64,000 bases of DNA from Acidimicrobiales bacterium (GTDB lineage Bacteria; Actinomycetota; Acidimicrobiia; Acidimicrobiales; JBBSGY01), in the NCBI GenBank assembly GCA_044220495.1, contig JBGAQY010000014.1, positions 1,165 through 65,164 of the forward strand. Direction: 5' to 3'. Position 1 is the stretch's first letter, and the number at the start of each line of letters is the position of its first letter. Shown here piece after piece: positions 12,696 to 54,060 of the stretch. The notes under the pieces are model-generated. The model ran no database searches and was not told the origin of the DNA. It was given only the letters and a program-made list of their open reading frames with translations. A program made the position numbers and the translations under genes.

Positions 12696-13790
12696 ATGAC
12701 AAACAAGCCCTCAAGAAGAGGAACTGGGTTTCCTGAGATCGACGACAAGCTGGTCGAGCTGCTCGACGAACTCGCCGTCACCCAAGATCGAGACCAGCTC
12801 TACGAGATATTCGCAACCGTTGCCCAGATGGCTAAAGACGGCGTTGACCGTCTCAATCTCAAGATCACCAATGCCGCTGTGCGCGAGATGCGCAACGGCT
12901 TCAAAGTCTTTGAACCCTACGCAGATCACCCCAAGGTGACCATGTTCGGCTCAGCGCGCACGTTGCCCACCGATCCTCTCTACGAGCAAGCGCGCCACAC
13001 CGCTCACCTGCTCGCTGAGCAAGGATGGATGGTCGTAACTGGCGCGGGCCCAGGCATCATGGCCGCCGGGCTTGAAGGTGCCGGCCCCGACAATTCGATG
13101 GGCATCAATATCCGTCTGCCGTTCGAGCAGTCAGCCAACGAGTTCATAGCGTCTGACCCAAAGCTCGTGACGATGAAGTACTTCTTCACGCGCAAGCTCT
13201 TGCTTATTAAAGAGTCAGACGGATTCATCGTGTTGCCTGGCGGTTACGGCACGCTCGACGAAGCATTTGAACTGTTGACGCTCGTGCAAACCGGTAAGGC
13301 TGAACCAACCCCAATTGTCTTGCTGGAAGTTCCCGGCGGCACTTATTGGCAAGGCTGGAAAGACTTCATCGAGAATCAAGTGGTCGGTCACGGGCTCGTT
13401 TCACCTCGCGACGACGTGTTGTTCAAGATCACTGACTCTGCTGACGCAGCGACAGAAGAAATCCTCGGCTTCTATCGCAACTATCACTCACGTCGATATG
13501 TCGGTGATCATCTCGTGATGCGTTTGCGCACTCGTCCAACTGACGCCGAAGTACGCATGCTCGACAGTGACTTCCGCGACATCTGCGCGCGCGACGGCAT
13601 CAGCCGCACCGACGCACTGCCTGCCGAAGTGCATGACAACGACGAGCTCGACAAGTCGCGCATCAGCTTTGTGTTCGACCGCACGCAACACGGACGCCTG
13701 CGCGAGCTAATCAACGCCGTGAATTCACTCGACAGTGCACCCAAAGAGCGACCACCGGCTCGTCACTACGTCGAGCCCGCTTCTGGTTAG
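12696..13790 (+). CDS. LOG / TIGR00730-family nucleotide 5'-monophosphate nucleosidase-like protein with N- and C-terminal extensions
   Basis: Motifs GAGPGIMAA and [12 protein letters not shown] 12696 is preceded by GAGG 5 nt upstream. Confidence 0.75.
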
Positions 13791-14569
13791 TAGTTCGCCA
13801 GTCCGTTCCAGCGACGGTCGGGGCGCATGCTGGGCGGAAGTCGCGTGAGGATTTGAAAGGCGAGCAGCGAACGCCAGCGGCCTTTCCGCCACACAAAGAA
13901 CCAATGGCCGCAAAGCCAGATGCCGAACGCAATGGCGAGACGTGCCGCTGTTACTACGGGCGGTACATCCGTGAGAAACGCAGCAGTAATGCTGAGAAGT
14001 GCAGTCAACCATCCGCATAGTCGCAGCGCGAGCGAGCCGAACTTCCACGCCATCAGTAACCAAAACACGAGCCAAAACGCGTCGCCGTTCGACACACCAG
14101 GGATGACACTGAGACCGACCATCAGCGCCGTGATCACCCACAGCAGCAAGAACAGAACGAGCAAGAACCGCGCGACGCGGAAAGGCATACTCCATGTCAT
14201 CGGCAGGTAGCCCTTGGCTCGACGGCCACTGTTGGGGATGTGATACCCGGGCGATTCGGCCGGATCGTTGCGATAAGGAATGTCGTCGTTGAAGACGTCT
14301 TGATCGGCGACCGGTGGCGTTCCGCCTGGAGGAGTTATGTCGAGCCGCTGCGGTCGCGGCCCGTTTAGTTCGGCGTCGTAAGCAGCACGCTGTGTCGGAC
14401 TCGACAACACCTCATATGCATGGTCGAGCAGCCCGAATAATGCCGCATTTCCACCGTGGTCGGGATGGTTGCGCATGACCTGCTGGCGATAAGCCGACTT
14501 GATCTCATCTTGAGAGGCGGTGCGCGACACACCGAGCAATTCATAATGAGTGGGCGCCGCATTTCTCAT
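13787..14569 (-). CDS. J-domain (DnaJ-like) membrane protein
   Basis: N-terminal J domain (YELLGVSRTASQDEIKSAYRQQVMRNHPDHGG, HPD motif present). The C-terminal half has 3-4 hydrophobic helices. Confidence 0.7.
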   Translation of the reverse strand: MRNAAPTHYELLGVSRTASQDEIKSAYRQQVMRNHPDHGGNAALFGLLDHAYEVLSSPTQRAAYDAELNGPRPQRLDITPPGGTPPVADQDVFNDDIPYRNDPAESPGYHIPNSGRRAKGYLPMTWSMPFRVARFLLVLFLLLWVITALMVGLSVIPGVSNGDAFWLVFWLLMAWKFGSLALRLCGWLTALLSITAAFLTDVPPVVTAARLAIAFGIWLCGHWFFVWRKGRWRSLLAFQILTRLPPSMRPDRRWNGLANY

Positions 14570-32957: not shown

Positions 32958-34655
32958 CTAGATGCGAGGTGGGTCAATCTCTATGCGCAACCGAGCTGGA
33001 CGCTTGACTCCGCTGAACGCATTGGCAAGCACGTCAGCAGTGGCTGCTTTCAGTAGATACGAACCCTCACGAGGTTCGAGCACGTCAAAGTCTCCGCTCA
33101 GGGCGGCGACGAAATCACTCGCTCCCCCGCCTTCGACAATGGCCAACCGACTAAAGGGCGGCCACTGCAACTCAGCCCGGCGTTCAGCCTCAATCACCGA
33201 CACGCGAGTTGGATCAGCGTTCTCTGCTGCCGTAATCGCTTCGTGCTTGGGCTGCCTCGTCTGCACCACTATCAATCCACCAGAACGGCGCCCGCCGACA
33301 AGTTTTGACGCGCGTGCCAACAAGATCAGCGCGTCTTCCGTTGCTCGGAATCTTGGCGCCAACAACTCTTGATCAAAGTCGAGGAACACCACAGCGTCAG
33401 CGCGTCCGATGCGGTGTAACACCGCTTCGGTTCCGACGAGTACCGACGCGTCAGGCAGGGTGTCGCTCTCACCTGTGACCTCGCCAACCGGCCGCAGAGC
33501 AAGCGACTCAAGCTCTTCGCGCACACGACTAACGCCGGCGCGCAGTTGCTTGAACACCGTCGACCCACACGTCCCACACACCACCGGCTGACGAGCAGCA
33601 CAGCGCTTGCAAACGAGGTCGTTGCGGTCGTCGTCTTTTGATGAGTTGGTCAGCGACCCTGAACACTTCTCGCAACGGGCGATCTCGTCGCATGCTTTAC
33701 AGACCAGCAACTGTGCTCTGCCCTTGCGGTTCAAAATGCAGACAACACGCTTAGTCGAGCGCAACAACTCGACAACGCGCGGTGAATACAGACCTGAGTG
33801 CGGATCGCTCTTGCGAAGATCAACGACGTGCAGCGCCGCCCAACCTTCGCGTTCGACAGCACGATCGGGCTCAATCAGCTTGCGTTCGTGCAGCAACTCA
33901 ACGCGGGGCGCAAACGAAGACAACACACACGGAATCTCGCGCCGTCGGGCTCGTTCAACCACTACGTCGATTGCACTCCACGTCGGTGATGCTTCCGACT
34001 GCAGAGCTTCGTCGTGCGCGTCAAGAACCAGCACCGAGTTGAGATCAACCATTGGCGCCCACGCGGAGGCGCGCGTGCCGACAACACTCACACCACCGCC
34101 AGCCGCCAGCGCCCACTGATCGGGATACAAGGCAACTCGGCGCCCTGCTTCGCGCATGCGCCGAGCCAGCTTCTCTGCACCTCTTTGAGATGGGCTCACG
34201 ATCAGAGCTGGCCCGCGATCGTCAGCAGCGAGTGCAAGCGGCAATGGGTCAGTTGCTGGTGGCCACCGCAGCACAGTTGTTGAACTGCCCGAGAACCATT
34301 CACTGTCGACTGCCGGCGCATGAGTGTCACGACCAAGCGAACGAACATTCCTCAGCGGCGACGCCGTCTGCAGAAAAAACGAACGCTTACCGGCCCAACG
34401 CCATGCAGCCCACGATGCGAGCTCAATGATTTCTTCGTTGGGCCCGCAACCACTCCACTTGGTTAGTTCAAGCAGGCGCACGCCCTCGGGGGGCGTTGCG
34501 TCGTCGTCAATCACCCATCCCCGAATGCGCCGGTTATGCAACATGGCGCGAACGACAGAGCCAACGCGCACGTCCGCGTCGAACTTCTCGGGAATTAGGT
34601 AATCGAACTCAGCCTCGATGCCAGAGACATCGGGAACTACGCGGGCGACGCGCAG
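32958..34655 (-). CDS. priA: Primosomal protein N' (PriA, actinobacterial type with degenerate helicase motifs)
   Basis: Cys-rich zinc region CKACD..CEKC..CKRC..CGTCG. The track ORF starts at GTG 34571. The conserved N-terminus VARVVPDVSGIEAEFDYLIPEKF is encoded in frame upstream, up to the metK stop. The start is therefore probably CTG 34655. Confidence 0.85.
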   Translation of the reverse strand: MRVARVVPDVSGIEAEFDYLIPEKFDADVRVGSVVRAMLHNRRIRGWVIDDDATPPEGVRLLELTKWSGCGPNEEIIELASWAAWRWAGKRSFFLQTASPLRNVRSLGRDTHAPAVDSEWFSGSSTTVLRWPPATDPLPLALAADDRGPALIVSPSQRGAEKLARRMREAGRRVALYPDQWALAAGGGVSVVGTRASAWAPMVDLNSVLVLDAHDEALQSEASPTWSAIDVVVERARRREIPCVLSSFAPRVELLHERKLIEPDRAVEREGWAALHVVDLRKSDPHSGLYSPRVVELLRSTKRVVCILNRKGRAQLLVCKACDEIARCEKCSGSLTNSSKDDDRNDLVCKRCAARQPVVCGTCGSTVFKQLRAGVSRVREELESLALRPVGEVTGESDTLPDASVLVGTEAVLHRIGRADAVVFLDFDQELLAPRFRATEDALILLARASKLVGGRRSGGLIVVQTRQPKHEAITAAENADPTRVSVIEAERRAELQWPPFSRLAIVEGGGASDFVAALSGDFDVLEPREGSYLLKAATADVLANAFSGVKRPARLRIEIDPPRI

Positions 34656-41259: not shown

Positions 41260-44200
41260 TCACACTTCGAGCGCGAGCTGATCTGCTGCGTGAAGTTCTT
41301 GCAGACTACGTACTCGCAGCTCGCGTGTGCGCCATGCCGAAACTCCTGCTGCTGCTGCACGAGCGGCAGCAGGAGTAGTGAGACAAACAATCTTGTGACG
41401 TCGTGCGGCAGCGCGAATGTGCGCACCATCAGCACGAGGTGCTCGCCCTTCGCGCGGAGTATTGACCACCAACTGCACGCTGCCGGCACTAATGAGATCA
41501 ACAGCGTCTACGCCGTGCTTCTCACCGACCTTGTTGATGATCACCTCTACAGCCAAGCCGTGATCTTTGAAGAACTTTGCGGTACCGGCGGTTGCGGCAA
41601 GGCCGAAACCGAGTTCGGCAAAGTGACGCGCCGCCGACAAGCAACTCTCTTTGTCACGGTCAGCAAGCGTGAACAGCACCGTTCCCTCTTGAGGCAAACG
41701 GTTGCCGGCCGCCAGTTGGCTCTTGGCAAAGGCAAGACCAAAGCTGGTGTCGACGCCCATGACTTCTCCAGTCGAACGCATCTCGGGCAACAACAACGTG
41801 TCGGCTTCGGGAAATCGGTCAAACGGCAGCACGGCTTCTTTGACGCTGACGTGCCCACCAGTTGCCGGTTCGCGCAACAGTCCTTCGGCTCGCAACTCAG
41901 CAAGAGTCGCACCAAGTTGAACTCGCGACGCGATCTTGGCAAGCGGCACACCCGTGGCCTTGGCGACAAACGGAACGGTGCGACTAGCTCGCGGGTTGGC
42001 CTCGATCACGTAAACGGTTTCACCGCGCACAGCAAACTGCACGTTGAGCAAGCCCTTCACGTCAAGCGCAGTAGCGATCTTGCGTGCTTGCTCTTCGATT
42101 TCGTGAATAACAGCGGGAGTAAGAGTCGGAGGAGGCAACACACATGCACTGTCACCCGAGTGCACACCGGCCTCTTCGACGTGTTCCATCACGCCACCGA
42201 TCAGCACTTCACCGCTCACGTCGCGAATCGAGTCGACATCGACTTCAATCGCATCTTCGAGAAAGCGATCAATCAACACAGGGCGTTCGGCCGATAGACC
42301 ACCTTCGCGACCAAGCGTTCCCCCACGAAGTAGTTCGGCCATTGCTTCAGCGAGATCTTCATCGTTGTAAACAATCCGCATCGCTCGGCCACCAAGCACA
42401 TAGCTCGGACGAACAAGAACTGGGTAGTCAACTTCGGTTGCGATGCCCACCGCTTCTTCGAACGAAGTGGCAAGTCCGCCTGACGGCTGACGAAGACCGA
42501 GCGAGTCGCAGAGTTGATTCCAACGCTCGCGATCTTCAGCCAAGTCAATTGATTCAGGTGAAGTGCCAAGGATGAGCTCTGCGGGTAACACATCAGCAAG
42601 CTTCAGCGGAGTCTGTCCGCCGAGCGACACAACGATGCCGCGCAACTCGCCAAAACGTGACTCGGCCTCAATGACGTTCATGACGTCTTCGTGAGTGAGC
42701 GGTTCGAAGTAGAGACGATCACTCGTGTCGTAGTCAGTCGAAACGGTTTCGGGGTTGCAGTTGATCATCACCGTTTCGTAGCCCGCCTCGCGCAGAGCAA
42801 AGCTCGCGTGAACGCAGCAGTAGTCGAACTCGACACCTTGCCCAATGCGATTCGGGCCCGATCCCAAGATGATGACTTTGGGCTTACTTGACGGACGCAC
42901 TTCATCTTCGTCTTCATAAGTCGAGTAGTGGTAAGGCGTGTTGGCCTCGAACTCAGCCCCGCACGTATCAACTGTTTTGTATGTCGGGATAACGCCTTGC
43001 TCCAAACGAGCAGACCGCACCTCAGCTTCGGTGGCGTTCCACAGGTAGGCAAGCTGCGCGTCAGAAAACCCAAGTCGCTTGGCTCGACGCCATTCGCCAC
43101 GCGTGAGTTCTTTCGGGTGACGATCTGCAAGCGCTATGCGTTCCTCGGTGATCGCCAACAGCTGGTCGAGGAACCACGGATCAACTTGGGTCGATTCAGC
43201 CAATCGATCGACACTGACGCCACGACGCAAAGCCGCTTCGAGTTGGAACACACGCGCGGGCGTTGCTGTCGATGCCAAGCGCACCAGATCGTCATCGCTG
43301 TGAACATCAAGTGCCGACTCAGCGGGATCGCAGTTGAGGCCGAAGCGGCCTTGCTCGAGCGAACGCAGACCCTTCTGCAAAGACTCAGGGAACGTGCGTC
43401 CGATTGCCATGGCTTCGCCGACTGACTGCATGCGCGAGGTCAGTGTCTCGCCGGTCTCGGGAAACTTCTCGAACGCCCAACGAGGGATCTTCGTGACCAC
43501 ATAGTCGATCGTTGGTTCGAAACTCGCCGGAGTCACGCCTGTGATGTCGTTGGTGACTTCATCGAGCGTGTAGCCAACGGCCAAACGCGCGGCGATCTTG
43601 GCAATCGGAAAGCCCGTTGCTTTCGACGCCAAAGCACTCGACCGGCTAACGCGAGGGTTCATCTCGATGACAACCATCTCGCCGTTTGATGGATTGATCG
43701 CGAACTGAATGTTCGATCCACCGGTGTCGACGCCGATACGACGGATGCACGCAAACGCGGCATCGCGCATCAACTGATACTCAATGTCAGAAAGCGTCTG
43801 CGCCGGCGCCACCGTGATCGAGTCACCCGTGTGCACACCCATTGGATCAAAGTTCTCAATCGAGCAGATGATCACGCAGTTGTCTGCGTGATCGCGCATG
43901 ACTTCGAGTTCGTATTCTTTCCAACCAGCAATCGACTTCTCGATGAGCACTTCGCCGCGTGGGCTGGCTTCAATGCCTTGCTCGGCAAGCACGCGCAAAC
44001 GTTCAGCGTCGTCAGCAATGCCAGTGCCGGCACCGCCGAGAATGAACGATGGGCGAACCATGATCGGAAAGCCGATCTCGATACCCATGCGCACAGCTTC
44101 ATCGACGTCGTAGGCAAAGCCCGACTCAGGCACTGACAAACCAATGTCTGTCATTGCTCGCTTGAACTCGTCGCGAATTTCAGCGGTGCGAATCGCCGTG

Positions 44201-44559
44201 GCGTTAGCGCCGATCAACTCAACGTTGTAGCGCTCGAGAACACCGGCCTCGTCGAGCTCCATCGCGAGATTCAGCGCGGTCTGCCCACCGAGCGTCGGCA
44301 ACACGGCGTCAGGACGTTCGCGATCGATGATCGCTGTAAGCACTTCGAGGTCAAGCGGCTCGACATAAGTGCGGTGCGCGAACTCGGGGTCGGTCATGAT
44401 CGTTGCCGGGTTTGAGTTGGCGAGAATGACCCGATAACCCTCTTCCATCAACACACGACAAGCCTGCGTGCCCGAGTAGTCGAACTCACACGCTTGGCCG
44501 ATAACGATCGGGCCCGAGCCGATGAGAAGGATCGTGGAGATATCTGTACGTTTTGGCAT
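41260..44559 (-). CDS. carB: Carbamoyl-phosphate synthase large subunit
   Basis: 1099 aa with duplicated ATP-grasp halves and an MGS-like C-terminus. Confidence 0.98.
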
Positions 44560-47612: not shown

Positions 47613-49253
47613 CTAAAGCCCGTGGTCTAGTCCACGGCCGTCGCCTCGGGGTGGCGGAAGTTGTGGCGGCCCGCTTGGCTCTCGCACATCGACTGTGCGG
47701 GTAAGCGCCGTATTCAGGTCTGACCCGAAGGGCAGCACTTCTATCCTTGAGTCGAGTGACGTTGCGCGAGAGCCCAAGATTGCCGAACGAGCCTGCACGA
47801 TGGTGTCGATCTCGTGCTGCCCCAACTGGCCGTTATCAAAGGTCGCATCGCCCAATACCTCGCACGCCGTAATGGCCATCGCAAGCGCACGCTCACGATT
47901 CTCAAGAGGCACGCCCATCAACGTTTCAGGAATGTCGAGGTGGCTGATCCCGATGAGTGACTTCAACACTCGTGGACCTCGATCGTCTTGCCGACGGCCC
48001 ATGAATTCGAATAGCGGAACGCTCTTCAGATGATCTTCAGCATTCTGAACAGTTGCACTCAGACGCGCCCAAAGCCGCAGGACATCGTCGCTGATAACCA
48101 ATGGATCACGACGAGCCACAACTCCTGACCGCTCGCCACCCGATCGCGGGTTAGTCGGCGTGGCCGCGCGAACCACGCCGCGCTGGCTCAAGGCAGCGTT
48201 CATGGCCGTCATGCCATCGCCGACTGTCTGATCGTGCTCCCACTGCGCAACCTGGTCGTGTTCATACTCGGTGATCATGCGGATCAACTGACCTTGTGCA
48301 TCCCATGACCTGACGCCAGCATCGATGTCGCTTGCGCCTGCCACCGGAAGCACCGGCGCGAGACGGTCGAGACGGGTTCGATATGGCAACTCGTAAAACG
48401 TTCTGAAGAACTCCGGTCGTGCTGGGGGTGTCTGGCCTTGGCCGTCCCACCCTTCGATTCCGTTCCATCGCGTCAGCGCAAAGTCTTGATTTACGTAACG
48501 CTCGTCCATTACGCCTTCTCGATAAACCACGAGGCGAACGCGACCGGCGTCGATGTCGCCGCCGATATACGCGATCTCACGCGCCTCTCGACCAATGACC
48601 CCCCAATCGCCAGTTGACTGGGCGGTTTCAAGGCCAACGTAACGCCGTGCTTCTGCGTCGTAACGCACCGGCAAGCCGACGTGGAAGTTGCCCAAGCGAT
48701 CTACGCCGGCGCGCACACGAACGCCGGCGCGTCCAGCCGGAAGAATGGGAGGCATGTTCGGACCCAATGGGCCGTGCATGTCGCGCAACACAGACTCTGC
48801 GGCGTAACGCCTCAACAGCGCATCGGAGTAAACAACGCCATAAAGATCACAGTCGTCTGGGTGAAGTAGACCGACTTGGCCTTCGATCGGACGGCCCGTC
48901 ACCTGGTTCAAAAACGGTGTACGGACGGTAATGGCGTCGATATCTTCGGCAGAGAATCGCCAAACGTCGTCTGGGGTGCCGATGCGCGGATCGTTCGGAG
49001 AGACACCATTTTGATCGGCGAAAAAGTAGAAGCCTTTGTCTTCGCCCGGAACGCCGTAACTTTCAGGATTGCGAACAACAAGGCCAGCAAAAATAATGCC
49101 GCTCTTGTGCTGGACAGCGGCGACCAACGCGCCTTGCGACATACCGGGCCGAAACGGAATTGTCGGCGTGCCAAGCGTTCGGTTGTGGGGGTCATCGTCG
49201 AACGGACTCATCATGCCCCTGAGGGCAACCGGTCCGCGTTTATTGCTAGCCAT
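47613..49253 (-). CDS. Hypothetical protein, 546 aa, no recognisable family
   Basis: Long ORF with coding-like composition, co-oriented between nusB and pyrR. No TM segment or signal peptide. No motif I can name. Confidence 0.6.
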   Translation of the reverse strand: MASNKRGPVALRGMMSPFDDDPHNRTLGTPTIPFRPGMSQGALVAAVQHKSGIIFAGLVVRNPESYGVPGEDKGFYFFADQNGVSPNDPRIGTPDDVWRFSAEDIDAITVRTPFLNQVTGRPIEGQVGLLHPDDCDLYGVVYSDALLRRYAAESVLRDMHGPLGPNMPPILPAGRAGVRVRAGVDRLGNFHVGLPVRYDAEARRYVGLETAQSTGDWGVIGREAREIAYIGGDIDAGRVRLVVYREGVMDERYVNQDFALTRWNGIEGWDGQGQTPPARPEFFRTFYELPYRTRLDRLAPVLPVAGASDIDAGVRSWDAQGQLIRMITEYEHDQVAQWEHDQTVGDGMTAMNAALSQRGVVRAATPTNPRSGGERSGVVARRDPLVISDDVLRLWARLSATVQNAEDHLKSVPLFEFMGRRQDDRGPRVLKSLIGISHLDIPETLMGVPLENRERALAMAITACEVLGDATFDNGQLGQHEIDTIVQARSAILGSRATSLDSRIEVLPFGSDLNTALTRTVDVREPSGPPQLPPPRGDGRGLDHGL

Positions 49254-50381: not shown

Positions 50382-51494
50382 TCAAACCACGACCAAGTCT
50401 TTTGGAGCGTTGGTCAGGGGGTAACTGCCAGCATCGGTGACGACAACTGTGTCTTCGATGCGCACACCGCCGTGTTCGGCCAAGTAAACCCCGGGCTCGA
50501 CGGTGACCACCTGATTGGCGACGAGGCTATCAGTCACAGACCCAGCCACAGCCGGGGCCTCGTGGATGTCTAGACCTACACCGTGACCAGTTGAGTGGCT
50601 GAACGCGTCGCCCCAACCTGCTTCGTCGATGATCTTCCGACAGATGTCATCGACTTCGGCGCAAGTTACCCCCGCCTTTACCGCCGCAACTCCCGCTGCC
50701 TGGCTTTGAGCAACGACGTCAACCATCTTTTTCTGAGTATCTGACGTCGGCCCATCGACACAGAACGTGCGCGTCATGTCTGAGTGGTATCCGTCGACAA
50801 GTGCCCCAAAGTCGACGACGACCAATTCGCCGGGCTCAATCATGCGCTCTGACGGTGAGTGGTGAGCCTTTGCTCCGTTTGGCCCCGACGCGACAATCGT
50901 TTCAAAACTCACGTCGTCAGCGCCAAAGCGTCGCATCTCAAAGTCGAGTGCGAGAGCAAAGGCCGCCTCGGTTGGCCGGTCGAGCAACATTGGCAACACT
51001 GTTGCAAGGGCCACATCGGCAACACGTGCTGCTTCAGCGAGGCGATCTAACTCGCCGACGTCTTTAACTTTGCGAAGCTCTTCTACGGCTTCACGAGTAG
51101 GCACTAGTTCGTTGTCGCTAAACCAGTCAGACTCGAACGTGCGCTGCTGTGACCAAGTCACGTTTGTCGCCTCAAGCCCCAAGCGCTTGTTGGCACTTGC
51201 GAGTTTGGCCAACGCCTCTTTCTGCTTGGCGTATCCGCCCACAACGATCTCGGCCTGCACACCGGCAGCCGACAACTGTTGGTCGGCTTGAATGCCGTAG
51301 CGACCGTCGGTCGTGAACACGACCTCGTCGGGCGTCACCAAAACGAACGCAGCGGATCCCGAAAAGCCAGTTAGGTAGCGGACGTTCACGAGGTTTGTCA
51401 CCAGCAGCGCATCGCACTCGTGAGAATCAAAAGAACTACGTAGCTTCTCGAGCCGAGAAGCTACGTTCATGGGTCTAAAGCTGTGTGGGGCCAT
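50382..51494 (-). CDS. pepQ: Xaa-Pro aminopeptidase / dipeptidase (M24B family)
   Basis: DFGALVDGYHSDMTRT, HSTGHGVGLDIHE, VEPGVY. Confidence 0.9.
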   Translation of the reverse strand: MAPHSFRPMNVASRLEKLRSSFDSHECDALLVTNLVNVRYLTGFSGSAAFVLVTPDEVVFTTDGRYGIQADQQLSAAGVQAEIVVGGYAKQKEALAKLASANKRLGLEATNVTWSQQRTFESDWFSDNELVPTREAVEELRKVKDVGELDRLAEAARVADVALATVLPMLLDRPTEAAFALALDFEMRRFGADDVSFETIVASGPNGAKAHHSPSERMIEPGELVVVDFGALVDGYHSDMTRTFCVDGPTSDTQKKMVDVVAQSQAAGVAAVKAGVTCAEVDDICRKIIDEAGWGDAFSHSTGHGVGLDIHEAPAVAGSVTDSLVANQVVTVEPGVYLAEHGGVRIEDTVVVTDAGSYPLTNAPKDLVVV

Positions 51495-51506: not shown

Positions 51507-53579
51507 CTAAGCCAAGTCGGGGCCAGAACTGCGGCGAGACGTTGACTCGGCCAAATCAGGTGTCGACACAGGCTGCACGTACACATCCGTGTTCCGCGCT
51601 TCGGCTCCAGGCACATTGCCGTCGATCGACGAGTAAACAACCTGCTCGGCGCCGCGCGATCCGTTGTCGGCCGAGTAGACGCGAGGCTCGACGCTGCCGC
51701 GGCTGGCTTCTGATCCGAAATCGTCGTCAAAGGCTTTGTCGACCACGCTGCCTGCTCGTAGATACGCTGTCTTCGATTCGGCGCCATCGAGGACTGGCTC
51801 AATTGCAGAGGCATCAACCGCATTGCCCGTCGCACGCCGCATGGCCTCATGTGTGACCGAGAGTGCAACGGCAGCAGGGTTGTCGAGCTTGACCCCCGAG
51901 TCGTGCTCGTGCTGACGGAGACGACTGGCAACGTGGATTACCGAAAAGGCGGCGACACGACCGTTTTCGCTGAGCTTGCCGTCAGCGCTTGGCGTGATCA
52001 CTTTCTCAATTTCAGGCAACAGACTGTCAGCGCGCTCTGCGCCGACAGTCAACCCGACAAGACTGACCGCGTTAGCAGCTTGTGCTGCCAACTCCGCGTC
52101 GGGCGTATTGTCTTTGCGGAAACGCTGCGACAGGCCCTCAACAAGCGGCCTGAAATTAGCGCCGCGATCTGGCTGCTCATTTTGTGGACCCTGAGCCTGC
52201 GCCGACGGACCAGCAGGCGTCTGTTCTGGACCTTGTTGCTCGGGGCCTGTGGCCTGCTGCTGTTCCTGCACAGGACCCGGCGTCGGCGTTTGTGCGCCAT
52301 CACCCAACGCTTGACCTTGCTGCAGGCCGGCGGCATCGCGCGCTGTGAGACCCTCGCCGGGCAAGTCTTGACCGGCGCGAACTTCGCGAGCCCTGTCGCG
52401 GACAACACCGGCCTCTTGATCTTTTTGCGTGAGGCGCAAGTAAGTGTCGATTGCCTCTTTGCCGCCTTGGTACATCTTGTAAGCGCCGTAAGCGTAAGCA
52501 GCCAAGAACGGGTTGATGATGAAAGCACCCCAAAACAAGAGCTTCTTCGATTTATTGAATGCGCCGCCGGCAAAGATCTTTGCCTTGTTCCATTGCTGAC
52601 CCAAGAACTGCTTGCGTTCGTCGCGACCTTGCTGCTTGAGAGCGTCGGCCTGTTCGTCAAGTTCCCGCGCTCGCGCTTCGATGCTTGAGTTGATGCCCTC
52701 GCGGAACGTGTTGACTCGCTGAGCAAGGCGTTCGGCCGACTGACGAGGACCGAAATCTGCCGGCACGCTGTCGGAAAGTCCGGCATCGCCAAGAGCTGAT
52801 TGCTGAGCCAGTGCGGGAGCTGCTGGAGGATCGGGCAATTGAAAGCCACGAGCAGGCGTGTCATTTGTCGTCGCCTGAGCTGGAGGGTCATTGCTGACAG
52901 ACGAGGCGGAGTCGACGGCCGAAACGCCATCGAGTTCGTTGACCGACTTCATGAGAATGGGGTGTCCGCCACGGATGCGATCGATCGGACCAATCACACC
53001 GCGCTCTTCAAGTTGGTCGCGAAGTTCGAATGCTCGAGCGAAGTTGATGTCGCCAAAGTGAGCGTGAATGCCGTTTGCATTGGGCTCGACGCGACCTTCG
53101 ATGATTCCGGCAGCAAGCCCACGAAAGGCCGTTTCTTCAGGGCTGAGTTGCTGGGCTGGCTGAGGAGCAGGAGCGGCCGGCGGAGGTGGTGTCGGTTCGG
53201 CGACGGGGGCCTGAGAAACCGATGGGGGCTCTGGCAAGGGCTGTGGTGTCTGCACAACTGGGGCTGGTGTCTGCACGACCGGGGTTGGCTGTGGCGTCGG
53301 GGGTGGAGCGTAGGACGGTATCGGCATGCCGGGCTTAAGAAGAACGGGACGGCGACCGTTTTGTTGGGCGGCGCCAACGACACCCAATCGCTCGAGGTCT
53401 GACACGACCTGCTCGGCAATACCTCGATTCAGGCGAAGCTTTTGCTCCATAAGACGGACCGATGCCCCGTTTGCCTGTCGGGCGGCGTCGACGGCTGCGT
53501 AGTAGAGAACGTCATAACCGAGGGGCGGGGCAGCCGGCGTTTGTTGAGGGTTGCCAGGGCGGGGTGAAGCGTCAGCCAT
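51507..53579 (-). CDS. Hypothetical protein with two FtsK-gamma-like winged-helix domains, Pro-rich linker, one predicted TM helix and long C-terminal region
   Basis: aa 21-82, DVLYYAAVDAARQANGASVRLMEQKLRLNRGIAEQVVSDLERLGVVG...RRPVLL, follows the FtsK gamma pattern (LY..AV...ASIS.LQR.LRIGYNRAAR.I..ME..GIVG...R.VL). A second, weaker copy lies near aa 160-215. The TM candidate is LLFWGAFIINPFLAAYAYGAY. No ATPase motifs. Confidence 0.6.
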   Translation of the reverse strand: MADASPRPGNPQQTPAAPPLGYDVLYYAAVDAARQANGASVRLMEQKLRLNRGIAEQVVSDLERLGVVGAAQQNGRRPVLLKPGMPIPSYAPPPTPQPTPVVQTPAPVVQTPQPLPEPPSVSQAPVAEPTPPPPAAPAPQPAQQLSPEETAFRGLAAGIIEGRVEPNANGIHAHFGDINFARAFELRDQLEERGVIGPIDRIRGGHPILMKSVNELDGVSAVDSASSVSNDPPAQATTNDTPARGFQLPDPPAAPALAQQSALGDAGLSDSVPADFGPRQSAERLAQRVNTFREGINSSIEARARELDEQADALKQQGRDERKQFLGQQWNKAKIFAGGAFNKSKKLLFWGAFIINPFLAAYAYGAYKMYQGGKEAIDTYLRLTQKDQEAGVVRDRAREVRAGQDLPGEGLTARDAAGLQQGQALGDGAQTPTPGPVQEQQQATGPEQQGPEQTPAGPSAQAQGPQNEQPDRGANFRPLVEGLSQRFRKDNTPDAELAAQAANAVSLVGLTVGAERADSLLPEIEKVITPSADGKLSENGRVAAFSVIHVASRLRQHEHDSGVKLDNPAAVALSVTHEAMRRATGNAVDASAIEPVLDGAESKTAYLRAGSVVDKAFDDDFGSEASRGSVEPRVYSADNGSRGAEQVVYSSIDGNVPGAEARNTDVYVQPVSTPDLAESTSRRSSGPDLA
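53244..53285. repeat. 21-bp tandem duplication (2 units, 18/21 identical) inside the 690-aa gene
   Basis: Units tggtgtctgcacaactggggc and tggtgtctgcacgaccggggt. They encode PVVQTPA / PVVQTPQ in the Pro-rich linker. Confidence 0.75.
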
Positions 53580-53610
53580 GAGCCATTATCGCTGTTAGCG
53601 GTCATGCCGT

Positions 53611-54060
53611 TCAAGCTGAGAGCTGTTTTATTACTGCCTGAATTGCCAGCTCATAGCCATATCCGCCAAGCCCCACGATGGTTGCAGAAGCAACGGGTGA
53701 AACCACCGATGTGTGGCGCCACGACTCTCGAGCATTCGGATTCGACAAGTGGACTTCGACGACCATTGCGTCAAAGGCAGCGAGGGCGTCATGGATCGCC
53801 CACGAGTAATGCGTAAAGGCACCCGGATTGATCACGATCGCGGCCGCTCGGCCCCGGGCTCCGTGGATTGCGTCGACCAACTCGGCCTCTGAATTCGACT
53901 GCAGATGCTCGACTTGGAGCCCGGCCGACGCGGCAACTTTCGCAGCCGCTGAGACGTGGTCGTCGAGTGTTGCCGAGCCGTAGATCTCTGGCTCGCGCGT
54001 GCCGAGCAGATTCAGATTCGGGCCTGACAGAAGAAGCACTAAAGGTTCAGACATCGGCAC
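53611..54060 (-). CDS. aroQ: 3-dehydroquinate dehydratase, type II
   Basis: LLLSGPNLNLLGTREPEIYG and HLSN motifs. Confidence 0.94.
   Translation of the reverse strand: MPMSEPLVLLLSGPNLNLLGTREPEIYGSATLDDHVSAAAKVAASAGLQVEHLQSNSEAELVDAIHGARGRAAAIVINPGAFTHYSWAIHDALAAFDAMVVEVHLSNPNARESWRHTSVVSPVASATIVGLGGYGYELAIQAVIKQLSA

Follow-up and report, generated by a model that had tools for sequence, protein, structure and literature searches.

What does a winged helix of the FtsK-gamma type do at the N-terminus of a protein that has no motor, and how does such a protein come to be encoded in the middle of a housekeeping operon? The question is raised by a stretch of 64,000 nucleotides (the window) from an Acidimicrobiales bacterium (contig JBGAQY010000014.1, positions 1,165 to 65,164 of the forward strand, assembly GCA_044220495.1). 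Between aroQ and pepQ, the minus strand of the window encodes a 690 amino acid orphan protein, here called X (complete coding sequence 51507..53579, with the stop codon at 51507-51509). All coordinates given below for parts of X refer to the minus strand. A preliminary description, made from the sequence alone, had placed the open reading frame (ORF) and the peptides quoted from it correctly, and had taken X for a membrane-anchored module that reads DNA sequence, with a suggested accessory role in chromosome anchoring or segregation. We arrive at a different answer. As judged from its residues, X appears to have kept the gamma fold, but not the known gamma functions, namely the reading of FtsK-orienting polar sequences (KOPS) and the contact surface for XerD. 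X is best described as a real, lineage-restricted accessory gene of an Acidimicrobiia bacterium, set in the aroQ/pepQ junction of a conserved housekeeping operon.

Gamma-type units in X

The recognizable part of X is confined to a single family. PF09397 (FtsK_gamma; profile length 63 positions, gathering cut-off 30.6 bits) is the sole significant Pfam family for X, and matches the whole protein in two stretches with 41.4 bits (E 1.2e-10). The scan with this family, which the preliminary description had proposed as a check, is thus significant. However, the threshold is passed only by the sum of two units, each of which is sub-threshold alone. Unit 1 (residues 21-82, 53334..53519), when scanned alone, reaches 29.9 bits, and is matched from residue 22 to residue 81 over profile positions 3-62 of 63. 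It also aligns without gaps to the solved Pseudomonas aeruginosa FtsK-gamma structures 2j5o and 2ve8. Unit 2 (residues 151-212, 52944..53129) scores 19.6 bits alone (E 7.7e-4). Its significant match covers only residues 178-201 (52977-53048; profile positions 31-54), and is thus restricted to about 23 residues that comprise the recognition helix and the first part of the wing. For ordinary gamma domains, the scores are 82-89 bits. Of the two gamma-like units that had been proposed, the first one can be followed end to end, whereas the second one is partial.

The two units differ in the type of gamma domain that they resemble. With a GYNRAAR-type profile, unit 1 scores 36.7 bits and unit 2 only 8.4 bits. 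With a hidden Markov model (HMM) of the Actinomycetes type, based on the gamma domains of ten FtsK proteins from Actinomycetes, unit 1 scores 14.6 bits and unit 2 15.5 bits. None of 2000 shuffles of unit 2 reached the latter score (the maximum was 4.9 bits), and the resemblance is therefore above chance. By eye, unit 2 (NFARAFELRDQLEERGVIGP) likewise resembles the Actinomycetes-type gamma domain in its recognition-helix and wing-start signature. A BLASTP comparison of unit 1 with unit 2 found no similarity. The units are therefore not the product of a recent internal duplication.

The single-sequence AlphaFold2 (AF2) model of full-length X has a predicted local distance difference test (pLDDT) score below 50 over both units. 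It places helices at residues 22-36, 38-64 and 67-72 of unit 1, and at residues 147-160, 168-175 and 181-192 of unit 2. In both units, this low-confidence pattern is compatible with a three-helix winged helix. Taken together, the profile evidence indicates that X carries one clear and one vestigial winged helix of the FtsK-gamma type, both N-terminal, and neither attached to a motor.

Unit 1 is preceded by a Pro-rich N-terminal tail (residues 1-20, 53520..53579), assigned from its composition, with low pLDDT and no secondary structure. Units 1 and 2 are separated by a Pro/Thr/Gln linker (residues 83-150, 53130..53333), which contains 26 prolines among 68 residues and also has no predicted secondary structure. 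The 21-bp tandem duplication that had been noticed in this linker was recovered by Tandem Repeats Finder at 53244..53288 (period 21, 2.1 copies, 87% match). It encodes the repeats PTPVVQT/PAPVVQT.

Residues for KOPS reading and XerD activation

Unit 1 was aligned to 45 non-redundant canonical gamma domains, and its residues are discussed here with the numbering of E. coli FtsK. In this comparison, 13 of the 27 columns that are conserved to at least 90% are kept in unit 1. What is kept is the hydrophobic core, the GxVG turn and the Gly-Arg of the wing, with residues L1268, A1272, V1273, A1282, S1283, A1298, E1306, G1309, V1311, G1318, R1320 and L1323. In contrast, all the invariant polar residues of the alpha2-alpha3 region are changed (S1285R, Q1288E, R1289Q, G1294N, Y1295R, N1296G, R1297I, R1300Q and E1303S). 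The statement that the domain closely follows the KOPS-reading pattern therefore does not hold. In canonical gamma domains, both known activities, KOPS reading and XerD activation, reside in this surface.

The R1300A and E1303A substitutions impair KOPS recognition, and the triple variant R1300A/E1303A/E1306A is known as the 'KOPS-blind' allele (PMC2680272). At these three positions, unit 1 has Q57, S60 and E63, so that R1300 and E1303 are replaced, and only E1306 is kept. Unit 2 has E, D and E at the same positions, and N and F at positions 1294 and 1295. The situation is similar for the activation of recombination. The nine residues 1289-1297 (RQFRIGYNR), among which R1289 forms a salt bridge to XerD E184, suffice for XerCD-dif activation (PMC5052618). 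The equivalent peptide of unit 1 is QKLRLNRGI, with one of nine residues identical, and Gln in place of R1289.

The first conservation table contained gamma domains of the Proteobacteria type only, and ten Actinomycetes FtsK gamma sequences were then added. In the Actinomycetes proteins, too, Q1288, R1289, G1294 and R1300 are conserved, as are the aromatic character of position 1295 and the acidic character of position 1303. As the key positions are conserved in both types, the conclusion that the surface has been lost does not depend on the bias of the original set towards Proteobacteria. The core residues have been kept selectively while the surface residues have changed, and this pattern looks like repurposing rather than random decay. 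The retained wing arginine and the net charge of +3 of unit 1 count in favour of possible DNA binding.

The remainder of the protein

A motif search of X for Walker A/B sequences found none, and a Pfam scan of the protein gave no motor or 4TM match (PF01580, PF17854, PF13491), in line with the absence of a translocase module noted before. About 50% of X is of low complexity (rich in Pro, Gln, Ser and Gly). Unit 2 is followed by a Ser/Asp/Ala/Pro-rich region that is predicted to be disordered, on the basis of its composition, pLDDT below 50 and the lack of secondary structure (residues 213-277, 52749..52943). Next comes a long charged helix with a Lys-rich juxtamembrane end (residues 278-345, 52545..52748; helices 278-315 and 319-342), the only part of the full-length AF2 model with pLDDT of about 70-80. 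The coiled or charged region of the preliminary description is thus charged and helical. A test for a heptad pattern in residues 278-345 was negative, with a hydrophobic fraction of only 0.44 in the best register.

The charged helix leads into a candidate transmembrane or interfacial helix (residues 346-368, 52476..52544), with the sequence K-LLFWGAFIINPFLAAYAYGAY-K, that is, 21 uncharged, aromatic-rich residues between two lysines. The hydrophobicity scales disagree about this segment. On the Kyte-Doolittle scale, the 21-mer reaches 1.40, compared with 1.41 and 1.39 for the soluble proteins PepQ and CarB, and with 2.5-2.9 for the genuine membrane proteins of the window. On the Wimley-White scales, it scores -9.3 (octanol) and -7.9 (interface), ahead of the best soluble controls (-6.2 and -4.0), and ahead of the best segments of MltG (-6.0 on the octanol scale, and -3.3 on the interface scale for the N-terminal anchor), but it falls short of the polytopic proteins (about -17). 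As Wimley-White speaks for, and Kyte-Doolittle against a membrane segment, we grade the association of X with the membrane via residues 346-368 as plausible to probable, where the preliminary description had treated it as given. The net charge of the flanks is +4 on the N-terminal side and +1 on the C-terminal side, and the positive-inside rule therefore predicts an N-in topology.

The C-terminal region of about 300 residues, previously treated as one piece, is composite, with a Gln/Gly/Pro linker of about 85 residues, a helical bundle of about 150 residues, and a disordered tail of about 70 residues. In the segmentation by composition and AF2, residues 369-470 (52170..52475) start as a charged helix, up to about residue 402, and continue as the Gln/Gly/Pro-rich linker (residues 403-470). 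The orphan all-alpha bundle follows (residues 471-620, 51720..52169), and the protein ends in a Ser/Asp/Gly-rich disordered tail, assigned from composition and the full-length AF2 model (residues 621-690, 51510..51719). With a pLDDT of 43.6, the full-length single-sequence model was too poor for a structure search. When residues 466-625 were modelled alone, the best AF2 model was a seven-helix bundle with pLDDT 69.8 and a predicted template modelling (pTM) score of 0.66, and the other four models had pLDDT of 48-56. A Foldseek search of the bundle against the PDB returned mostly generic or designed helical repeats (best E 0.18, TM 0.26), so that the structural comparison suggested earlier for this region matched no known fold.

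Several candidate similarities were rejected. A TrwE match in the PDB search was a Pro-rich compositional match. The matches to Phe_tRNA-synt_N (helical arm, in the region of residues 278-345), DUF2884 and Urease_gamma were below threshold.

Gene X in its operon

X lies in the operon aroC-aroK-aroB-aroQ-X-pepQ-efp-nusB, the genes of which are tightly packed and co-oriented. The spacers that flank X are only 31 bp (aroQ side) and 12 bp (pepQ side) long. The identity of the neighbours, as given in the preliminary description, is supported by their domains, DHquinase_II for aroQ and Creatinase_N/Peptidase_M24 for pepQ.

The gene call for X is the same in the NCBI contig and in two Logan assemblies. 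The X sequence is identical in the NCBI contig and in the independent Logan assemblies SRR28480390 and SRR28480386, and since it was thus assembled three times independently, an assembly artefact is unlikely. The 690 codons stay open in a context of about 60% GC. A codon-usage log-likelihood, for which 20 genes of the window with Pfam support served as the training set, favours the annotated frame of X in 22 of 22 sliding windows. The margin averages 0.33 per codon, compared with 0.37 for pepQ. This host-like codon usage extends over the full length of X, including the low-complexity parts, and X therefore looks like a translated gene. We conclude that X is a real gene.

How X is expressed is less clear. 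A consensus scan found a promoter-like sequence in the aroQ-X spacer (TTGAAC-18-GATAAT, 53585..53614, minus strand). The -10 element of this site stops 6 nt short of the start codon (ATG) of X, and a Shine-Dalgarno sequence is missing, so that a leaderless start of X is possible. However, the scan found two sites where 2.0 were expected by chance, and the site is therefore weak and only a lead.

Distribution of X and its insertion site

Among about 15 billion proteins, nothing homologous to X was found outside the gamma unit. A word-indexed search with full-length X found only X itself, and the same search with unit 1 alone found nothing, not even X. An exhaustive phmmer search against 1.84 billion cluster representatives returned only X itself, P0002, which is a gamma fragment of 90 residues with 45% identity to unit 1, and P0003, which is discussed below. 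The NCBIfam scan of X gave no match, the PHROG matches were marginal (E 4e-4 to 2e-3), and scans of JGI metagenomes, IMG/VR, PLSDB and INPHARED for X were negative. X is thus indeed an undescribed protein, as had been supposed.

The host context is more familiar. The PepQ protein of the locus is closest to proteins from Acidimicrobiia/Acidimicrobiales, with a best identity of 64-65%. Among 160 related loci (80 from genomes and 80 from metagenomes), about 140 have both aroQ and pepQ, separated by 6-200 bp in about 125 cases. X is absent from all of these approximately 140 relatives, and aroQ abuts pepQ in most of them. When the 14,399 six-frame ORFs of the about 160 loci were searched with phmmer and with the gamma HMM, neither X, nor a motor, nor a gamma domain was found.

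About 14 relatives carry unrelated inserts of 0.8-1.2 kb between aroQ and pepQ (L002 4790-6001, L004 5101-6001, L019/L022 4914-6001, L020 1691-2826, L040 4902-6001, L057 784-1757, L062 5209-6001, and also L097, L099, L101, L136, L146 and L150). The inserts encode a membrane protein of the endonuclease/exonuclease/phosphatase (EEP) family (PF03372), a dual-specificity (DSP-type) phosphatase and a prepilin peptidase (both on the opposite strand), or an unknown protein of 328 amino acids. The latter, found in the closest relative L002, was considered as a divergent version of X, but has neither similarity to X nor a Pfam match. The aroQ/pepQ junction is thus a recurrent gene-insertion spot in Acidimicrobiia. 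As the inserts of the relatives are diverse and none of them is X, X is a lineage-restricted insertion at a permissive junction.

Comparison with known proteins

The obvious reference for X is the gamma domain of FtsK/SpoIIIE (PF09397; 2J5O, 2J5P, 2VE8/2VE9). Unit 1 aligns with it end to end and shares its core, GxVG turn and wing Gly-Arg. In contrast to the reference, the domain is found at the N-terminus of X (residues 21-82 of 690), without an attached alpha/beta motor or 4TM region, scores far below ordinary gamma domains (29.9 and 19.6 bits for the two units compared with 82-89 bits), and has substitutions at the KOPS and XerD contacts. The ordinary FtsK proteins that were found in a search with P0003 (see below) all carry PF17854, PF01580 and PF09397, and the FtsK/SpoIIIE translocase is characterized by an N-terminal 4TM region and a gamma domain at the extreme C-terminus. 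X shows none of the defining features of the translocase, and has a single hydrophobic segment (residues 346-368) instead of the 4TM region.

Gamma domains without a motor are known from phages, which encode standalone gamma ORFs and, in the Bacillus phages Sam46 and Sam112, a fusion with the small terminase (PMC8190038). As in X, the gamma winged helix is used there as a probable binding module outside a translocase. However, these gamma domains are canonical and keep the GYNR(A/T)(A/T)R motif, with a reported E value of about 2e-27 for those of Sam46 and Sam112, whereas the units of X are degenerate and its C-terminal half is unrelated. Motor-less use of gamma is already known, though uncharacterized, and what X would add are two degenerate units and an orphan C-terminal half.

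A parallel in layout is P0003, an orphan motor-less gamma protein of 879 amino acids (L174 1217-3856, Logan SRR24742824; L175 1211-3850). Its gamma domain is canonical (82 bits). A DnaJ-like segment stays below threshold, and the protein further contains hydrophobic segments and a long C-terminus of unknown type. P0003 is encoded next to DUF5663, FKBP and TGT genes, a context unrelated to that of X. The two proteins share the combination of gamma domain, Pro-rich linker, helical stretch and hydrophobic segments, and a weak pairwise alignment connects residues 248-378 of X with residues 385-510 of P0003 (E 0.004). A family of membrane-anchored gamma proteins based on P0003 was considered and rejected. 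All matches were to ordinary FtsK via the gamma domain, and the genomic context was unrelated. The window itself encodes a protein of 260 amino acids (13787-14569, minus strand) that has a J domain at its N-terminus (PF00226, 63 bits), followed by a Pro-rich linker and a C-terminal half that is hydrophobic and polytopic. This membrane-anchored J-protein is unrelated to X, but echoes the J-like and hydrophobic layout of P0003.

Other features of the window

Upstream of aroC, in the direction of transcription, the minus strand encodes alaS, mltG (YceG), aroE and a prepilin peptidase. Downstream of nusB follow an unknown ORF of 546 codons, pyrC, carA and a long ORF of 1099 codons (41260-44559). 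The 546 amino acid product (orf546; 47613-49253, minus strand), encoded directly 3' of nusB in the same operon, is a second lineage-specific orphan. It has no match in Pfam, NCBIfam or PHROG, it uses codons in the native manner (mean margin 0.31), and among the related loci it is found in the same strain only. X and orf546 are not similar, and the window contains no other paralogue of X.

A hairpin is located at 51438-51466 (minus strand), 41 nt past the stop of X, with a perfect 13-bp stem, a 3-nt loop, a T-rich tail and a stability of -21 kcal/mol. It sits in the first codons of pepQ (NVASRLEKLRSSF), where the codons GTA, CTA and AGT are used. Relatives fold strongly at the same position of the pepQ start (median -20 kcal/mol over 50 nt), and the hairpin is possibly an attenuator, or a 5' structure that has been conserved. 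The true start of pepQ is probably Met9 (ATG at 51470), since the proteins of the relatives begin with 'MDVA...'.

An ORF of 537 codons (32958-34571, minus strand) has no Pfam match at E<=1e-5, but matches NCBIfam PriA models, over residues ~150-485 only, with 135 bits (cut-off 230). Its product is possibly a PriA-like helicase that has diverged or has a reduced N-terminus. From about 13.8 kb onwards, the window has nearly all its long ORFs on the minus strand. In the stretch that was profiled for GC skew (48-57 kb), the plus strand has mostly negative values. The strand bias and the negative skew are consistent with a location of the window on one replichore, with the minus strand leading.

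Possible roles of X

The reading that we prefer, and hold tentatively as plausible rather than probable, is that X is a putative membrane-tethered adaptor built from repurposed gamma winged helices, with its N-terminus inside and its bundle outside. In such a protein, the gamma fold would serve as a generic winged-helix binding module. The partner of the module would be either a protein or DNA, and in the latter case the sequence specificity would be altered or absent. Flexible Pro-rich linkers would connect the winged helices to a helix embedded in the membrane, the N-terminus would be cytoplasmic according to the positive-inside rule, and the orphan helical bundle would lie beyond the membrane. 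The mode of action would then be of the ToxR/CadC type or that of a Noc-type tether, unlike FtsK, and the role of X would be dispensable and lineage-specific.

This adaptor reading draws on the remodelling of the surface on a retained scaffold, on the candidate membrane helix, and on the precedent of motor-less gamma proteins. Several points weigh against it. For unit 2, the match amounts to about 23 residues. DNA binding by X is putative, and it is precisely the classical contact residues for DNA that have been lost. The Kyte-Doolittle value of the hydrophobic segment is inseparable from that of soluble enzymes of the window, and an Asn-Pro pair is located in the middle of the segment. About half of the protein is of low complexity, as would also be expected for a poorly constrained young gene. 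Finally, the lack of homologues precludes a test for purifying selection, covariation analysis and a usable structure model.

The most serious competitor, which we nevertheless regard as unlikely, is that X is indeed such a young and weakly constrained gene. A gamma fragment, captured at an operon junction that is permissive for recombination, would have been extended by low-complexity, slippage-prone sequence, and would be translated because it rides on the operon, with no or only marginal selected function. X stands alone in a set of about 15 billion proteins (with hits only to itself, a 90 amino acid gamma fragment and an unrelated orphan), and is missing from all relatives examined as well as from the viral, plasmid, phage and metagenome collections. 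The P/Q/S/G-rich half of the protein, the 21-bp tandem duplication, the decay of functional gamma residues in both units, and the presence of orf546 as a second orphan downstream in the same operon would all fit. However, a frame of 690 codons at about 60% GC, with a codon signal as strong as that of pepQ in every window, is not what this explanation would lead one to expect. The same applies to the winged-helix core, which is selectively retained under an altered surface in a manner that resembles repurposing, and to the C-terminal segment, which folds in silico to a compact helical bundle.

Alternatively, X might work in a more familiar way. ToxR/CadC-type proteins are membrane-integrated winged-helix regulators with an extracytoplasmic C-terminal domain, and Noc-type proteins are tethers between DNA and membrane. 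By analogy, X would share with both a putative cytoplasmic DNA-binding module and a membrane-binding helix, but it is unrelated to them by sequence and has neither an OmpR-type (PF00486) nor a ParB-type domain. If X were a one-component regulator in the strict sense, a cytoplasmic winged helix would sit on an operator, and an extracytoplasmic sensor bundle, connected by a single transmembrane helix, would let an outside signal control transcription. The order of the parts (winged helix, juxtamembrane helix, hydrophobic helix and folded C-terminal domain) is the same, and the charges of the flanks give the required N-in prediction. Yet the winged helix is of the gamma type and not of the OmpR type, about 260 mostly disordered residues lie between unit 1 and the hydrophobic helix, and there is neither a known target operator nor a conserved partner gene. 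As the presumed sensor domain also lacks a recognizable fold, we consider a ToxR/CadC-like regulator rather improbable.

A bolder candidate reading takes the two gamma types at face value. X would then be the first membrane-tethered bivalent DNA-binder that combines two independently derived gamma types (GYNRAAR and the Actinomycetes GFAKAGR), with surfaces that have re-evolved for a new DNA motif, and would couple the nucleoid to the envelope without a motor. We give this only a slim chance.

The model of the preliminary description, a motor-less and membrane-anchored reader of skewed KOPS-like octamers that would anchor or orient the chromosome during segregation, fares worse. X does have two gamma-type units and a plausible membrane helix, and the reading of KOPS involves several gamma domains at a time (PMC5052618, PMC3384302). 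However, R1300 has become Q in unit 1 and E in unit 2, and E1303 has become S and D, respectively. N1296, Y1295 and G1294 are replaced as well, and unit 2 is a remnant of 23 residues. Moreover, a segregation function should be conserved, whereas the gene is missing in the approximately 140 relatives and in the databases that were searched. With two of the three KOPS-blind positions and the XerD-activating peptide replaced, sequence reading by X and a segregation accessory function are very unlikely.

Even less can be said for X as a motor-independent Xer activator or decoy, in which a free gamma domain would contact XerD like isolated FtsK-gamma or the phage protein XafT. An isolated gamma domain, and even the 9-residue peptide, activates XerCD-dif when brought close (PMC5052618), and motor-independent Xer activators do exist, as XafT of TLC-phi is described as an FtsK-independent activator of XerD (PMC9226527, PMC6744903). 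XafT is a small motor-less factor that replaces the activating role of FtsK-gamma, whereas X is without the XerD-contacting gamma residues, and only PF09397 was detected in it. With the peptide QKLRLNRGI matching at one of nine positions, Gln in place of the salt-bridge residue R1289, and no xer gene or recombinase seen among the window ORFs that were scanned, this role is hardly credible. Finally, X might be what is left of a full-length ftsK after its disruption, or might result from faulty assembly or annotation. This idea draws on the fact that its only recognizable domain normally belongs to FtsK, and is effectively refuted by the N-terminal instead of C-terminal gamma unit, the intact aroQ and pepQ on its flanks, the conserved synteny, the lack of a motor or a further gamma domain in the scanned window ORFs and in 163 related loci, the continuous frame, and the three independent assemblies.

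Implications

Since the DNA-reading and the recombination-activating residues of FtsK are gone, X is a curiosity rather than a new chromosome-segregation factor. No general question about chromosome segregation is opened by X. The gene is confined to one lineage, and the residues on which the known activities of gamma depend are gone. The domain capture and the ancestry in two types of gamma domains are mildly surprising, but their importance is limited by the lack of conservation and of a testable general mechanism. For annotation, the lesson is that a PF09397 match alone does not make a protein a 'KOPS reader' or an 'FtsK fragment'. If X is functional, its architecture would be new and probably membrane-associated, and the gene would be a small case of domain capture and gene birth inside a conserved housekeeping operon. 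For the family, a functional X would then mean that the gamma winged helix can leave its motor behind, lose the contacts to KOPS and XerD, and take on a new use as a general binding module.

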